From: Escherichia coli O127:H6 str. E2348/69
Lineage (GTDB): Bacteria > Pseudomonadota > Gammaproteobacteria > Enterobacterales > Enterobacteriaceae
Assembly: GCF_000026545.1 (NCBI RefSeq)
Contig: NC_011601.1
Length of the DNA: 64,000 bases
Strand: one strand, 5' to 3'
Position 1 is the stretch's first letter. Each line of letters opens with the position of its first letter. The notes beneath the pieces are model-generated. The model saw only the letters and a program-made list of their open reading frames with translations. It was not told the origin of the DNA and made no database searches. Positions 15,098 to 19,369 of the stretch are shown piece by piece. Both the position numbers and the translations under genes were made by a program.

Positions 15098-17296
15098 ATG
15101 TCGACTCCTGACAATCACGGCAAGAAAGCCCCTCAATTTGCTGCGTTCAAACCGCTAACTACGGTACAGAACACCAACGACTGTTGCTGCGACGGCGCAT
15201 GTTCCAGCACGCCAACTCTCTCTGAAAACGTCTCCGGCACCCGCTATAGCTGGAAAGTCAGCGGTATGGACTGCGCCGCCTGTGCGCGCAAAGTGGAAAA
15301 TGCCGTGCGCCAGCTTGCAGGCGTGAATCAGGTACAGGTGTTGTTCGCCACCGAAAAACTGGTGGTGGATGCCGACAATGACATACGGGCACAAGTTGAA
15401 TCTGCGGTGCAAAAAGCGGGCTATTCCCTGCGCGATGAACAGGCCTCCGACGAACCACAAGAATCACGCCTGAAAGAGAATCTGCCGCTGATTACGCTTA
15501 TCGTGATGATGGCAATCAGTTGGGGGCTGGAGCAGTTCAATCATCCGTTTGGTCAACTGGCGTTTATCGCGACCACGCTGGTTGGGCTGTACCCAATTGC
15601 TCGTCAGGCATTACGGCTGATCAAATCTGGCAGCTACTTCGCCATTGAAACCTTAATGAGCGTAGCCGCTATTGGTGCGCTGTTTATTGGCGCAACGGCT
15701 GAAGCTGCGATGGTGTTGCTGCTGTTTTTGATTGGCGAACGACTGGAAGGCTGGGCCGCCAGCCGCGCGCGTCAAGGGGTCAGCGCGTTAATGGCGCTGA
15801 AGCCAGAAACCGCCACGCGTCTGCGTAACGGTGAGCGTGAAGAGGTGGCAATAAACAGCCTGCGGCCTGGCGATGTGATTGAAGTTGCGGCAGGTGGGCG
15901 TTTGCCTGCCGACGGTAAACTGCTCTCACCGTTTGCCAGTTTTGATGAAAGCGCCCTGACCGGAGAATCCATTCCTGTGGAGCGCGCGACGGGCGATAAA
16001 GTTCCTGCAGGCGCCACCAGCGTAGACCGTCTGGTAACGCTGGAAGTGCTGTCAGAACCGGGTGCCAGCGCCATTGACCGGATTCTGAAACTGATTGAAG
16101 AAGCCGAAGAGCGCCGCGCACCTATTGAGCGGTTTATCGACCGTTTCAGCCGTATTTACACGCCAGCGATTATGGCCGTCGCCCTGCTGGTAACGCTGGT
16201 GCCGCCGCTGCTGTTTGCCGCCAGCTGGCAGGAGTGGATTTATAAAGGGCTGACGCTGCTGCTGATTGGTTGCCCGTGTGCTTTAGTTATCTCCACGCCC
16301 GCGGCGATTACCTCCGGGCTGGCGGCAGCAGCGCGTCGTGGGGCGTTGATTAAAGGCGGCGCGGCGCTGGAGCAGCTGGGTCGTGTTACCCAGGTGGCGT
16401 TTGATAAAACCGGTACGCTGACCGTCGGTAAACCGCGCGTTACCGCGATTCATCCGGCAACGGGTATTAGTGAATCTGAACTGCTGACACTGGCGGCGGC
16501 GGTCGAGCAAGGCGCGACGCATCCACTGGCACAGGCCATTGTGCGCGAAGCACAGGTTGCTGAACTCGCCATTCCCACCGCCCAATCACAGCGGGCGCTG
16601 GTCGGGGCTGGCATTGAAGCGCAGGTTAACGGTGAGCGCGTGTTGATATGCGCTGCCGGAAAACATCCTGCTGATGCATTTGCTGGTTTGATTAATGAAC
16701 TGGAAAGCGCCGGGCAAACGGTAGTGCTGGTAGTACGTAATGATGACGTGCTGGGTGTCATTGCGTTGCAGGATACCCTGCGCGCCGATGCTGCAACTGC
16801 TATCAGTGAACTGAACGCGCTGGGTGTCAAAGGGGTGATCCTCACCGGCGATAATCCACGCGCAGCAGCGGCAATCGCCGGGGAACTGGGGCTGGAATTT
16901 AAAGCGGGCCTCTTGCCGGAAGATAAAGTCAAAGCGGTGACCGAGCTGAATCAACATGCGCCGCTGGCGATGGTCGGTGATGGTATTAACGACGCGCCAG
17001 CGATGAAAGCTGCCGCCATCGGGATTGCAATGGGTAGCGGCACAGACGTGGCGCTGGAAACCGCCGATGCAGCATTAACCCATAACCACCTGCGCGGTCT
17101 GGTGCAAATGATTGAACTGGCACGCGCCACTCACGCCAATATCCGCCAGAACATCACTATTGCGCTGGGGCTGAAAGGCGTTTTCCTCGTCACGACGCTG
17201 TTAGGGATGACCGGACTGTGGCTGGCAGTGCTGGCAGATACCGGTGCGACGGTGCTGGTGACGGCGAATGCGTTACGGTTATTGCGCAGGAAATAA
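15098..17296 (+). CDS. zntA: Zn(II)/Cd(II)/Pb(II)-translocating P-type ATPase ZntA
   Basis: 732 aa; N-terminal metal-binding GMDCAAC, CPC transmembrane motif (GCPCALV), DKTGTLT phosphorylation site, GDGINDAP hinge. Confidence 0.97.
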   Translation: MSTPDNHGKKAPQFAAFKPLTTVQNTNDCCCDGACSSTPTLSENVSGTRYSWKVSGMDCAACARKVENAVRQLAGVNQVQVLFATEKLVVDADNDIRAQVESAVQKAGYSLRDEQASDEPQESRLKENLPLITLIVMMAISWGLEQFNHPFGQLAFIATTLVGLYPIARQALRLIKSGSYFAIETLMSVAAIGALFIGATAEAAMVLLLFLIGERLEGWAASRARQGVSALMALKPETATRLRNGEREEVAINSLRPGDVIEVAAGGRLPADGKLLSPFASFDESALTGESIPVERATGDKVPAGATSVDRLVTLEVLSEPGASAIDRILKLIEEAEERRAPIERFIDRFSRIYTPAIMAVALLVTLVPPLLFAASWQEWIYKGLTLLLIGCPCALVISTPAAITSGLAAAARRGALIKGGAALEQLGRVTQVAFDKTGTLTVGKPRVTAIHPATGISESELLTLAAAVEQGATHPLAQAIVREAQVAELAIPTAQSQRALVGAGIEAQVNGERVLICAAGKHPADAFAGLINELESAGQTVVLVVRNDDVLGVIALQDTLRADAATAISELNALGVKGVILTGDNPRAAAAIAGELGLEFKAGLLPEDKVKAVTELNQHAPLAMVGDGINDAPAMKAAAIGIAMGSGTDVALETADAALTHNHLRGLVQMIELARATHANIRQNITIALGLKGVFLVTTLLGMTGLWLAVLADTGATVLVTANALRLLRRK

Positions 17297-17324
17297 AGAG
17301 GCTATCAGTCTACGGTCCAACAAT

Positions 17325-17460
17325 GCCGGATGCGGCGTGAACATCTTATCCGGCCTACACAGAGCATCGAACTCGTAGGCATGATAAGACGCGACAGCGT
17401 CGCATCAGGCATTGTGCACCGTATCGCCAGATGCAGCTTGAACGCCTTATCCGGCCTACA
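17325..17460. repeat. BIME cluster (three REP-like palindromic units)
   Basis: gccggatgcggcgtgaacatcttatccggcctaca ... gacgcgacagcgtcgcatcaggc ... cgccttatccggcctaca. Confidence 0.8.
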
Positions 17461-17510
17461 AACCGGTTTCAAGCAGCAACATTGAGCGCGATCGGTCCCC
17501 TCGCTCCTCT

Positions 17511-19060
17511 CTGTCTCTTATACACAAATCCCCACCCGGGGATTTGTGATGTCTGTCAGTCTGCTTTAGGGGGACTCTTTCCATCCGGTAGTTTCCTTCC
17601 TCCCCGGCAGCGATTTTTTGAACTTTTTCCTCACCCGTTGATCTTCTCTTATATTTCATTTTCTTCGGGTCTGTTATGGTACTTTCTGATTGTTATTCAT
17701 GGGCTAACGAGCAGTTTGGACATGCCCGTCTCGGTGATCCGCGTCGTACACGACGCCTTGTGTCACTGGCCTCTTCTCTCGCTCAGCATGCAGGTCTTTC
17801 TATTGTGAAATCATCCCAGTCCACTGCTCAGGTTGAAGGTGCGTACCGCCTGATACGTAACCCGTCTGTGTCCCCGCAAGCCATTGCCGAAGCCGGATTT
17901 ACCGCCACTGTAAGGGCATGTGAGGCTCATCCGCTGCTCCTCGCGCTGGAAGACACCACCACCATTAACTTCAGTCACAGTACGGCATCTGATGACCTGG
18001 GGAATACCACCACTAACCCGAAGACGCGCGGGCTGCTGGCTCACTCTGTCCTGATGTACGCCCCCGACAGCGCCCTGCCAGTCGGTCTTATCGAACAGCA
18101 GCGCTGGAGTCGTGCCACGGACACCTACGGTGTTAAGCACCAGCGAAAAGAACGTCCCTATGAAGAAAAAGAAAGTTACCGCTGGCAGCAGGCTTCGGAG
18201 CGCATGGCCGAACGGCTGGGGGAGATACAGAAACGGGTAATCACTGTCTGTGACCGGGAAGCGGATATCTGGCATTACCTGCATTATAAAGTCAGCCACG
18301 GGCAGCGCTTCGTGGTGCGTGCAGCACAGAATCGCCGGCTGGAAGAAGCACCCGGCAAGCTCTTCGAACTGCCGGAAGTCCTGGCAACCGCGGGAAGCCA
18401 CACGCTGAATGTGATGCAAAAAGGCGGGCGGGCAGCCCGCCAGGCCCGGATGTTCATCAGTTACAGCGAAGTCAGCATAAAAAATCCCGACAACAGCGGC
18501 CAGGCGCTCCCGCTCACGTATGTCTGTTGCCGGGAGCAGGCAGAGGACGGCGCCTGCTGGCATCTGCTGACGTCAGAAAAAGTGGCGAGTGCCGCCGATG
18601 CGCGACGTATCGTCAGCCATTACGAGCGACGCTGGCTGATAGAGGAATACCACAAGGCGTGGAAAAGTGGTGGTACATGTGTGGAATCGCTGCGAATGCA
18701 GACCCGGGATAACCTCGAGCGCATGGTGGTTATCAAGGCGTTTATCGCGGTGCGGGTGCTGGGCCTGCGGCAGGGCGGTATCAGTGAAGAAACACAAAAT
18801 GACAGCTGTGAGAAAATACTGACGCCGACAGAGTGGAAACTGCTGTGGGTTAAGCTGGAAGGAAAACCGCTTCCGTCACAGATGCCGACACTGAAATGGG
18901 CCTGTCTGAAACTGGCGAAACTGGGGCGATGGCATGACAGCAAACGCACCGGTCGCCCCGGTTGGGTAGTCATGTGGGATGGCTGGTTCAGACTTCAGGA
19001 TATGGTTGAGGGTTACCTGGTGATGAAGTCTCTTGATCAGGAGATCTGATCAAGAGACAG
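17511..19060 (+). mobile_element. IS50-like (IS4 family) insertion sequence, apparently intact, flanked by 9-bp target-site duplication CGCTCCTCT
   Basis: Left end ctgtctcttatacacaaat (17511..17529) and right end agatctgatcaagagacag (19042..19060) are inverted repeats of each other over the terminal CTGTCTCTT and closely resemble Tn5/IS50 outside and inside ends; identical 9-mer cgctcctct at 17502..17510 and 19061..19069. Confidence 0.88.
17676..19049 (+). CDS. IS4-family (Tn5/IS50-like) DDE transposase
   Basis: 457 aa; collinear similarity to Tn5 Tnp (LGDPRRT.RLV, EGAYR.IRNP, LALEDTT, CDREADI, RFVVR, LLTSE, RRWLIEEYHKAWKSG, DNLERMV, KRTG); stop lies inside the right inverted repeat. Confidence 0.9.
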   Translation: MVLSDCYSWANEQFGHARLGDPRRTRRLVSLASSLAQHAGLSIVKSSQSTAQVEGAYRLIRNPSVSPQAIAEAGFTATVRACEAHPLLLALEDTTTINFSHSTASDDLGNTTTNPKTRGLLAHSVLMYAPDSALPVGLIEQQRWSRATDTYGVKHQRKERPYEEKESYRWQQASERMAERLGEIQKRVITVCDREADIWHYLHYKVSHGQRFVVRAAQNRRLEEAPGKLFELPEVLATAGSHTLNVMQKGGRAARQARMFISYSEVSIKNPDNSGQALPLTYVCCREQAEDGACWHLLTSEKVASAADARRIVSHYERRWLIEEYHKAWKSGGTCVESLRMQTRDNLERMVVIKAFIAVRVLGLRQGGISEETQNDSCEKILTPTEWKLLWVKLEGKPLPSQMPTLKWACLKLAKLGRWHDSKRTGRPGWVVMWDGWFRLQDMVEGYLVMKSLDQEI

Positions 19061-19123
19061 CGCTCCTCTGGGGAGAGGGTTAGGGTGAGGGGAAAAGGCG
19101 GCATCGAAGCCCATCTTCCCCCA

Positions 19124-19369
19124 TTAACCGCCTTTACGAATCAAATAACGATAAGGCAGTCCATCCGTCTCTTTAGCAACCAGTTCGTGTTCCATAAAGG
19201 TACAAAACCCAGGAATATCGCGGGTCGTCGCCGGATCGTCGGCAATAATCAACAACGTTTCGCCTGGTTGCATATTGCGCACCGTTTTACGCACCATCAT
19301 CACCGGTTCCGGGCAGCGCAAGCCAAGCGCGTCGAGTGTATGGTCAGGACTGGAAAAGAGATCGGTCAT
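19124..19369 (-). CDS. tusA: sulfurtransferase TusA (tRNA 2-thiouridine synthesis)
   Basis: 81 aa [28 protein letters not shown]... with conserved CPxP cysteine motif. Confidence 0.95.

Follow-up and report, generated by a model that had tools for sequence, protein, structure and literature searches.

A complete ISEc13 copy between zntA and tusA of enteropathogenic Escherichia coli E2348/69 and the target preference of the element

The zntA-tusA locus and its insertion sequence

The 64-kb stretch of the E2348/69 chromosome analysed here (the window) contains the convergent genes zntA and tusA, and the DNA between them harbors a 1550-bp insertion sequence with CTGTCTCTT termini and a single intact transposase gene (see the table below). 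With a GC content of 55.5% the element is richer in G and C than the window (51.5%). It matches, over 1550 of 1550 bp, E2348/69 copies that are annotated as 'IS4-like element ISEc13 family transposase', and the RefSeq annotation puts an ISEc13 transposase gene at exactly this locus, the RefSeq protein of ISEc13 (WP_000244358.1) being the same protein as the one encoded here. The name ISEc13 is used on the basis of this annotation and of the 100% identity to the RefSeq copies labelled 'ISEc13 family'. By the convention of ISfinder, elements sharing more than 95% protein or more than 90% DNA identity are considered the same element. Compared with ISEc13 as annotated in RefSeq nothing is different in the E2348/69 element itself, and the feature is almost certainly a full-length, apparently transposition-competent ISEc13 of enteropathogenic E. 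coli E2348/69 (O127:H6). The element is already known: it is catalogued, named and annotated in RefSeq at the same position. As annotation there is thus nothing new in a named insertion sequence at a known position that breaks no gene.

Table. Features of the zntA-tusA locus (positions in the window)
Feature	Position	Strand	Basis or remark
zntA	15098-17296	+	convergent with tusA
Left arm of target inverted repeat, CCCCT, host DNA	17497-17501	.	single motif in 62.4 kb
Left 9-bp target-site duplication CGCTCCTCT	17502-17510	.	empty sites L002 and L003 hold a single copy
Complete ISEc13 copy (IS4 family, IS50 subgroup)	17511-19060	+	100% over 1550 bp against RefSeq-annotated copies
Left terminal inverted repeat CTGTCTCTTATACACAAAT	17511-17529	+	Tn5 outside end 17/19; mosaic end 17/19
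Perfect 11-bp hairpin CACAAATCCCC-ACCC-GGGGATTTGTG	17523-17548	+	overlaps inner left repeat; RNA fold -22.1 kcal/mol, z = -5.1
Transposase gene, 457 aa, uninterrupted	17676-19049	+	ORF list; Pfam; NCBIfam
Perfect 13-bp hairpin, right-repeat positions 3-15 and inverted subterminal copy	19028-19058	+	fold -24.4 kcal/mol, z = -3.5
Right terminal inverted repeat CTGTCTCTTGATCAGATCT	19042-19060	-	two GATC sites and the transposase stop codon inside
Right 9-bp target-site duplication CGCTCCTCT	19061-19069	.	same 9-mer as left
Right arm of target inverted repeat, GGGGA, host DNA	19070-19074	.	starts short GC-rich repeat GGGGAGAGGGTTAGGGTGAGGGG
tusA	19124-19369	-	convergent with zntA

The initial annotation had described an apparently intact IS50-like element with a 9-bp target-site duplication spanning 17502-19069, and the duplication is borne out by strains in which the site is empty. 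In A25 and MCJCHV-1 the uninterrupted site reads ...GGTCCCCT-CGCTCCTCT-GGGGAGAGGG..., with the 9-mer present once and the sequence otherwise collinear. The duplication is a genuine product of insertion; in a region rich in repeats (REP elements and a GC-rich repeat) an older repeat or mere coincidence could be imagined as the origin of the flanking 9-mers, but this has practically no probability left given the single CGCTCCTCT in these otherwise collinear empty sites. The reconstructed empty site is matched in one piece by 611 complete E. coli genomes, and a 2150-bp query across both junctions finds a full match in three E2348/69 assemblies only. The duplication had also been taken as a hallmark of IS4/IS50 insertion, which holds for the 9 bp found here but not as a fixed length for ISEc13, as the duplication measures 8 bp in 11 and 9 bp in 6 of 17 insertions with a clean duplication. 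Elements of the IS50 subgroup have 5'-CT ends, direct repeats of 8-9 bp and lengths of 1350-1550 bp (PMC2266710, Table 1), and ISEc13 falls within these ranges: its termini are CTG, its length is 1550 bp, and its duplication, 9 bp long at this locus, measures 8 or 9 bp in 16 further copies.

Since the insertion point lies 214 bp beyond the stop codon of zntA and 54 bp beyond that of tusA, no reading frame is broken, in agreement with the earlier view that the convergent neighbors flank the element undisrupted, both stop codons lying outside it. The proposal of a fresh insertion into the zntA-tusA terminator region stood in its first part, the insertion being confined to the E2348/69 lineage, but not in its second, as a consensus scan of the zntA-tusA intergenic DNA found no intrinsic terminator at the insertion spot. 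An outward promoter, which had been considered possible, did not emerge from a scan for sigma-70 consensus sites (0 sites, 1.2 expected), and the same scan yielded no consensus promoter for the transposase gene. Rfam matches are limited to the REP-derived naRNA4 at 17314-17456, with no known RNA family inside the element. A search of the window for the terminal 19-mers, allowing up to three mismatches, returned the zntA-tusA element only, each 19-mer occurring once (0.01 and 0 expected by chance); a composite transposon or a second copy within the window was thereby ruled out.

Transposase, ends and copies in comparison with IS50/Tn5

The transposase contains, in this order, the Pfam domains Tnp_DNA_bind (PF14706, E = 2.8e-19), DDE_Tnp_1 (PF01609) and Dimer_Tnp_Tn5 (PF02281), and scores 514 bits against NCBIfam NF033590 (cut-off 160). 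It aligns over its full length with Tn5 transposase at 42% identity (E = 6e-84); the enzyme had been called only distantly related to Tn5 transposase, and while the relationship is real, its remoteness was overstated for two proteins of the same subgroup. The IS4 family is defined by a DDE triad and a Y-(2)-R-(3)-E-(6)-K motif (PMC2266710). Both are conserved in the ISEc13 protein, D93, D193 and E323 aligning with D97, D188 and E326 of Tn5, and Y316, R319, E323 and K330 aligning with Y319, R322, E326 and K333. The DNA-binding domain at the N-terminus and the dimerization domain at the C-terminus are of the Tn5 type and encoded in a single ORF which, as initially reported, is full length: the 457 codons are uninterrupted, the catalytic residues are present and the protein is not truncated.

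The two ends of the element, with CTGTCTCTTGATCAGATCT read as reverse complement, share their 9 initial bp and 13 of 19 bp in all. The right end agrees in 19 of 19 positions with the inside end of L071, a true IS50 copy with an ORF for Tn5 transposase, confirming the identity noted earlier; the Tn5 outside-end and engineered mosaic-end sequences used for comparison with the left end were taken from PMC3347997. Relatives from Vibrio, Alishewanella and Alteromonas have a left end identical over 19 of 19 bp. The earlier remark that conservation is stronger at the ends than in the enzyme proved right too, 19/19 and 17/19 at the ends standing against 42% for the transposase and about 59-66% for the DNA of the whole element in comparison with IS50; whole-element DNA identity to the relatives is 54-60%. 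Several Dam sites had been noticed at the right end, and GATC is indeed found close to it at 19035, 19043 and 19048, with others at 17640 and 17736. The left end also includes TTATACACA, which we take to be a DnaA-box-like motif as in IS50/Tn5.

ISEc13 thus resembles IS50/Tn5 in its three-domain transposase with DDE and YREK residues, in its ends, in the position of the stop codon within the right end and the GATC sites of that end, and in the possibility of a 9-bp duplication. It differs by lacking an internal methionine at the position that begins the Tn5 inhibitor protein (Q52 stands opposite residue 56 of Tn5 in the alignment), by duplications that are more commonly 8 bp long, and by long hairpins at both ends, which IS50 does not have. 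An inside end matched in 19 of 19 bp and a left end whose initial 16 bases equal the mosaic end could be read as IS50/Tn5 itself, or as an artefact, for instance a scar of Tn5 mutagenesis or contamination of the assembly by Nextera mosaic ends. Against this stand a transposase with 42% identity to that of Tn5, whereas the true IS50 copy L071 scores 1026 bits against Tn5 structures, a whole-element DNA identity to IS50 of only 59-66%, the same insertion in three independent assemblies and the hundreds of genomes of wild E. coli that carry the element, which together leave this explanation a negligible chance. IS50 proper, as in the arms of Tn5, was rejected on the 42% transposase identity.

The copy-number count that the initial annotation had proposed gives 30 ISEc13 copies on the E2348/69 chromosome and 2 on plasmid pMAR2, the sampled copies being 99.8-100% identical to each other; the chromosomal number differs between the three E2348/69 assemblies (30, 29 and 27). 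In a survey of 5426 genomes some ISEc13 match was found in 2991 and a copy covering at least 80% of the element in 873. Degenerate remnants are therefore very common, and fixed truncated forms occur in metagenome contigs, comprising bases 1-452 only, a deletion of 532-1120 or a solo 50-bp left end, raising the question of whether the element at zntA-tusA is likewise a dead ISEc13-like remnant that is no longer mobile. This is very improbable, as neither the length nor the ends nor the 457-aa reading frame of the E2348/69 copy are impaired and every catalytic residue is retained; the copy also shares the genome with about 30 identical ones, and the insertion is absent from all other lineages. 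The lineage-specific insertion, the 30 + 2 near-identical copies, the varying counts and the intactness of ends and ORF point, at the level of sequence, to recent movement of ISEc13.

Target preference of ISEc13

ISEc13 strongly prefers sites in which a C-run is followed about 10 bp further on by a G-run and inserts into the spacer between them; its insertion site is not random. A C-run is found 10-13 bp outside each end in about 85% of 52 half-sites. At least three C at positions -13 to -10 occur in 24 of 27 left and 20 of 25 right flanks, compared with a background of 4.7% (P about 1e-29 and 1e-22), C accounting for 73-88% of the half-sites at each of the four positions and purines for no more than 4 of 52 at any. 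The target thus takes the form CCCC-N10-GGGG, and the duplication of 8 or 9 bp lies in the loop. The empty-site version of the window (62.4 kb) contains a single CCCC-N10-GGGG, CCCCTCGCTCCTCTGGGG, and this is the occupied site, a short inverted repeat beside REP elements. A paralogous copy of the GC-rich repeat in strain TUM14697 holds ISEc13 at the same position; this host repeat is suspected to be 'Box C', though a literature search on this was unproductive. In the E2348/69 copy the runs lie asymmetrically about the 9-bp duplication, at -14 to -11 on the left (C) and +10 to +13 on the right (G).

The pattern is derived from insertions that survived in genomes, and later selection could have added to it. 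Most sampled copies sit between convergent genes or in prophages, and since all data come from natural genomes, it could be imagined that the C-run/G-run pattern merely records survival in harmless intergenic hairpins rather than a choice made by the transposase. This seems unlikely. Selection for intergenic positions would not by itself keep the distance between C-runs and element ends constant, and here the runs are in single-base register with the ends; the same target sites are occupied in both orientations in independent contigs, and even a copy inserted within the gene dgoD (L068), which it disrupts, fits the pattern loosely. The preference accounts for the accumulation of copies between convergent genes. 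Tn5, in contrast, selects its targets nearly at random, and flanking arms are absent from L071, the single site of IS50 examined.

Symmetric target blocks are found elsewhere among insertion sequences. For IS231A a target consensus GGG-N5-CCC was reportedly described by Hallet and colleagues in 1994. Its insertion specificity is also cited in PMC2266710. Like ISEc13, IS231A belongs to the IS4 family and has a symmetric G/C-block target flanking the duplication, but it is a member of another subgroup with 5'-CAT ends and 10-12-bp duplications, and the polarity of the blocks is reversed (GGG...CCC instead of CCCC...GGGG). IS1397 and ISKpn1 of the IS3 family enter the loops of REP palindromes and thereby spare genes. 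They differ from ISEc13 in their unrelated transposase family, their copy-out-paste-in mechanism and their specific targeting of REP/BIME, whereas ISEc13 left the REP elements of the zntA-tusA spacer, at a distance of 50-190 bp, unused. The searchable literature names ISEc13 only in passing, in 8 papers, reports no transposition assay for it and describes neither its target preference nor the 8-or-9-bp duplications nor the subterminal hairpins; literature on the end sequence and on terminator-targeting insertion sequences yielded nothing about ISEc13.

Subterminal hairpins, relatives and a possible mode of insertion

How far does this preference extend among related elements? A peptide-based scan for the species range found relatives at 39-53% identity only, and the exact left-end 38-mer had no match in 100,044 GTDB representative genomes. 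Terminator hairpins are the insertion sites of relatives with 42-53% transposase identity, and these elements have a hairpin of their own just inside the left end. The left-end hairpin is found at the same place in four relatives, there followed by a T-run, a comparison among five elements that were folded separately. In the Vibrio relative the hairpin qualifies as an intrinsic terminator with 13 pairs and TTTTT; in the Alishewanella, Alteromonas and Pseudoalteromonas elements hairpin and T-run were recognized by eye, the one from Alishewanella not being called by the scan. The ISEc13 hairpin, with its tail AUGUCUGU, was not called as an intrinsic terminator either. At the right end the inverted subterminal copy within the hairpin encodes the C-terminus of the transposase. 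This hairpin is conserved, with a G/C change that is paired, in both the Vibrio element and a remnant from Shigella. An insertion sequence with its own stem-loop terminator is also known in IS1181 of Staphylococcus aureus, which lies in 3' untranslated regions and whose stem-loop stops transcription that enters from the neighboring gene (PMC7049690).

We infer present-day activity and a reading of the target pattern by the transposase itself, and, by analogy with the Tn5 paradigm, cut-and-paste chemistry. The Tn5-type DDE transposase would excise ISEc13 at its CTGTCTCTT termini, both ends would be joined to staggered positions of the target, and gap repair would leave the 9-bp duplication. The zntA-tusA spacer does hold the C-run/G-run motif, inside a small GC-rich intergenic repeat, and the element lies between the two runs. 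More broadly, but tentatively, as a possibility to which we give somewhat less than even weight, ISEc13 and a wide clade of the IS50 subgroup in Gamma- and Betaproteobacteria, not including IS50, might be hairpin-loop-seeking elements, a proposal that joins three linked points. First, the transpososome would recognize a symmetric pair of GC-rich arms, CCCC...GGGG in the case of ISEc13, and cut at the base of the stem, in which case the duplication would equal the loop. Second, the length of the duplication would track the spacing of the arms instead of being fixed by the enzyme, consistent with 8-9 bp in ISEc13 and apparently 8-12 bp in Alishewanella-type relatives. Third, many targets would be Rho-independent terminators that are split by the insertion, and the terminator which the relatives carry 16-45 bp inside their left end would replace the destroyed one and also shield the transposase gene from read-through; in ISEc13 this left-end terminator may have decayed to a hairpin without U-run.

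For work with E2348/69 the ends may matter in practice. The initial 16 bases of the left end match what we take to be the Nextera/mosaic-end adapter (CTGTCTCTTATACACATCT). Trimming software may therefore cut reads wherever they cross an ISEc13 junction, which would have consequences for read mapping and genome assembly in a strain that is widely used as a reference. Moreover, since the ends are near-invariant (16-19 of 19 bp) despite enzymes that are 42-52% identical, the 32 resident copies might act on Tn5 constructs; if so, constructs with Tn5 inside ends or mosaic ends could be substrates for ISEc13 in E2348/69. As a naturally target-selective relative of Tn5, ISEc13 could help to explain target capture by transpososomes of the Tn5 type, or to bias tagmentation enzymes.

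Identity and setting of the element

Going by RefSeq annotation, the element between zntA and tusA is a named insertion sequence, ISEc13 (IS4 family, IS50 subgroup), and as a find it is ordinary. RefSeq copies labelled 'IS4-like element ISEc13 family transposase' (WP_000244358.1), among them the copy at the zntA-tusA locus, match at 100% identity over the full length. The transposase is built like that of Tn5, from Tnp_DNA_bind, DDE_Tnp_1 and Dimer_Tnp_Tn5 domains, and scores 514 bits against NCBIfam NF033590 (cut-off 160). Its full-length alignment to structures of the Tn5 enzyme (E = 6e-84) shows 42% identity over 436 aligned residues. Conservation extends to catalytic D93, D193 and E323, to the YREK residues and to several positions that contact DNA (Tn5 numbering: R26, R27, R30, R62, R210, W298, K330 and K439). 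The element fits the IS50 subgroup as defined in PMC2266710 by its size, its 5'-CT ends and its 8-9-bp repeats. IS50 itself is ruled out: in L071, a genuine IS50 copy, the encoded protein is the Tn5 transposase (1026 bits), and the whole-element DNA identity of this copy to ISEc13 reaches only 59-66%.

The first 9 bp of the two ends are the same and 13 of 19 positions agree overall; neither terminal 19-mer recurs in the window, even with up to three mismatches (chance expectation ~0). The initial annotation had described an intact IS50-like element with a 9-bp target-site duplication, an observation that is confirmed and an interpretation that is supported: ends and reading frame are intact, and GATC sites lie near the right end (19035, 19043 and 19048) as it had noted. 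Its proposed comparison with the empty site was made by joining both flanks via one copy of the 9-mer and searching 5,426 complete E. coli genomes, 611 of which gave a one-piece match. Strains A25 and MCJCHV-1 show the sequence ...GATCGGTCCCCT-CGCTCCTCT-GGGGAGAGGGTTAGGG..., with the 9-mer present once, and the duplication is genuine. A 2150-bp query over both junctions was fully covered only in three assemblies, all of EPEC E2348/69 (O127:H6) and at 100% identity; the insertion is therefore younger than the lineage.

Features of the ISEc13 locus (window coordinates unless stated otherwise)
Feature	Position	Strand	Remarks
zntA	15098-17296	+	converges on element
REP-type units (n=2)	17314-17456		downstream of zntA; Rfam naRNA4 matches
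Target arms, host DNA	within 17497-17510 and 19070-19074		C-run left, mirrored G-run right
9-mer CGCTCCTCT	17502-17510 and 19061-19069		directly adjoins both element ends
ISEc13 element	17511-19060	+	1550 bp
Left terminus CTGTCTCTTATACACAAAT	starts 17511		
Left-end hairpin	17523-17548		-22 kcal/mol
GATC sites	17640, 17736, 19035, 19043, 19048		
Transposase gene (tnp)	17676-19049	+	457 aa, unbroken; stop codon within right repeat
Antisense terminator-like hairpins	18423-18441, 18486-18504, 18584-18596, 18179-18191	-	
Right-end hairpin	19028-19058		13-bp perfect; right-end positions 3-15 pair with inverted subterminal copy
Right terminus AGATCTGATCAAGAGACAG	ends 19060		reverse complement CTGTCTCTTGATCAGATCT
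tusA	19124-19369	-	converges on element
Left-end hairpin in relatives	410-438 of L072		same offset in L074, L078 and L095

The insertion lies 214 bp past the zntA stop codon and 54 bp past that of tusA and, as anticipated for this convergent pair, interrupts no open reading frame. Relative to zntA it sits beyond both REP-type units, one of which exceeds the naRNA4 gathering score (65 bits, minus strand); ISEc13 passed these units over as a target. A terminator scan recognised no intrinsic terminator at the insertion spot and a promoter scan at the element detected no sigma-70-type promoter, inward or outward, so that neither of the effects first suggested, a change in termination and an outward promoter, has support. 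Read-through from zntA, if any, would run in the sense of tnp into the left-end hairpin, and read-through from tusA would be antisense to tnp. On the antisense strand of tnp the scanned region has seven terminator-like hairpins with T-runs, where 2.3 would be expected; GGCGGGC-TGCCC-GCCCGCC followed by TTTTT is the strongest. Such hairpins might block transcription arriving from the tusA side.

Abundance, activity and remnants

Copies were counted with a 571-bp internal segment that is missing from common remnants. In E2348/69 this count, likewise proposed initially, gave 30 chromosomal copies and two on the plasmid pMAR2, the highest number among 5,426 genomes; in two further assemblies of the strain the count is 29 and 27. 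Ten copies drawn from a different genome match the window copy at 99.8-99.9% identity. Among complete E. coli genomes about 16% carry a copy that spans at least 80% of the element and 55% some fragment. Because frame and ends are intact, copies are near-identical and many, and counts differ between lineages, the sequence data argue for ISEc13 being currently active, as had been suggested.

Old fixed remnants of 93-98% identity, widespread in E. coli, are found in metagenome contigs (L014-L054) and consist of bases 1-452 only, of forms with an internal deletion of 532-1120, or of a solo 50-bp left end with repeat and hairpin. They recur at the same few sites across many metagenome samples. In E2348/69 some copies do damage genes (L068 and L069), one splitting dgoD (galactonate dehydratase) and one truncating a fructose PTS IIA gene. 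L069 and the pMAR2 copy L070 have no matching duplications, suggesting later rearrangement. In E. coli CP148541.1 two copies (L010 and L011) have swapped right flanks, the duplication of each matching the other's, which indicates inversion through recombination between copies; the same exchange is seen between L077 and L085 in Alishewanella.

Target sites of ISEc13 and its relatives

Flanks were taken from ten further sites in one E. coli genome, 41 metagenome contigs, 13 IMG/VR contigs and four RefSeq copies (three from E2348/69, one from TUM14697); the TUM14697 site was looked at after the half-site statistics and enters the duplication tally only. Removal of duplicates left 27 left and 25 right half-sites, that is host flanks of one element end, with negative positions counted outward from that end. 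From either end C occupies positions -13 to -10 in 73-88% of half-sites and purines are almost absent there (never more than 4 of 52 at a given position), while -9 is frequently T and -1 mainly G. Three or more C in this block were found in 24/27 left and 20/25 right half-sites, compared to 4.7% of background positions (P ~1e-29 and ~1e-22, respectively).

ISEc13 is thus sharply selective, placing its duplication in the loop between a C-run and a mirrored G-run. Target sites, once reconstructed, have the form CCCC(T)-[duplication]-(A)GGGG, with complementary arms directly adjoining the duplication in 10 of the first 16 clean-duplication sites, and some are textbook terminators (ATCCCC[CCGCTCGG]GGGGATTTTTTT; AAAACCCTCT[GTAGTAAC]AGAGGGTTTT). 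Since the arms are already present in empty sites, they are host DNA and no part of the element. The 62.4-kb empty-site window contains exactly one CCCC-N10-GGGG motif, the occupied one, which lies within a small GC-rich repeat (GGTCCCCTCGCyCCTyTGGGGAGAGGGTTAGGGTGAGGGG). In TUM14697 a paralogous repeat, located between lptG and yjgR, is occupied by ISEc13 at the equivalent position (duplication CGCCCCTTT), and another strain has a second, offset insertion in that repeat. Independent contigs show the same site taken in both orientations. With TUM14697 included, 11 sites have an 8-bp and six a 9-bp duplication, the length apparently tracking the spacing of the flanking arms; the 9 bp first regarded as a hallmark hold at the window site and are the minority outcome for ISEc13.

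In 39 distinct half-sites of relatives C prevails at -14 to -10 (21-30 of 39) and the bases beyond are A-rich, a pattern characteristic of terminator stems flanked by A and U tracts. These elements (L072, L074-L102) occupy the loops of Rho-independent terminator hairpins, for example GATACCCG[GCCACTGC]CGGGTATTTTTTT, AAAAAAGCCA[CCGTCAGG]TGGCTTT and AAAAGGCC[GCTCGATAG]CGGCTTTTTT, and their apparent duplications of 8-12 bp match the loop. Unlike ISEc13 and its relatives, IS50 has no such arms at the one site examined (L071). At L089 (a Rhodanobacteraceae MAG) and L087 the flanking 9-mers are mutual reverse complements (GGCAAAGCC and GGCTTTGCC), not direct repeats, within a long perfect palindrome; either the elements recombined or an unusual event occurred at a palindromic target.

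Conserved ends and subterminal hairpins

The right end is identical to the IS50 inside end (19/19), and the left end matches the Tn5 outside end and the engineered mosaic end at 17/19 positions each (sequences from PMC3347997); with 42% transposase identity to Tn5, the ends are indeed more conserved than the enzyme, as first noticed. Relatives with 42-53% transposase identity to ISEc13 occur in Vibrio owensii, Alishewanella, Alteromonas, Pseudoalteromonas and several metagenome-assembled genomes, and six compared in full share 14-19 of 19 end positions with ISEc13 at a whole-element DNA identity of 54-60%. Tn5 ends serve both transposase and host factors, the outside end through a DnaA box and the inside end through Dam sites, and such dual use is a likely cause of end conservation. 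The first 16 bases of the left end (17511-17526) equal the Nextera/Tn5 mosaic-end adapter, and at every left junction of ISEc13 reads would be cut back by adapter trimmers that look for CTGTCTCTTATA.

Elements of the sub-clade with the ISEc13-type left end have a strong hairpin (z = -4.5 to -6.1) that begins near their base 16. A T-run follows this hairpin in the relatives, and its inner stems vary in sequence yet remain complementary; the Vibrio hairpin passes the terminator scan. In ISEc13 the T-run is degraded and the scan makes no call at this hairpin. The inverted subterminal copy in the right-end hairpin encodes the last transposase residues, and both the Vibrio element and a remnant on a Shigella plasmid (L073) preserve this hairpin, with a paired compensatory G/C change.

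An element that splits terminators would gain by carrying its own, which would block read-through into tnp and give the neighbouring gene its termination back. For an insertion sequence equipped with a terminator, as proposed here for the ISEc13 relatives, IS1181 of S. aureus provides a documented precedent (PMC7049690). As far as the literature is searchable, neither the target rule nor the clade's terminator-related anatomy has been described; though no discovery, they form a plausible and modestly interesting addition.
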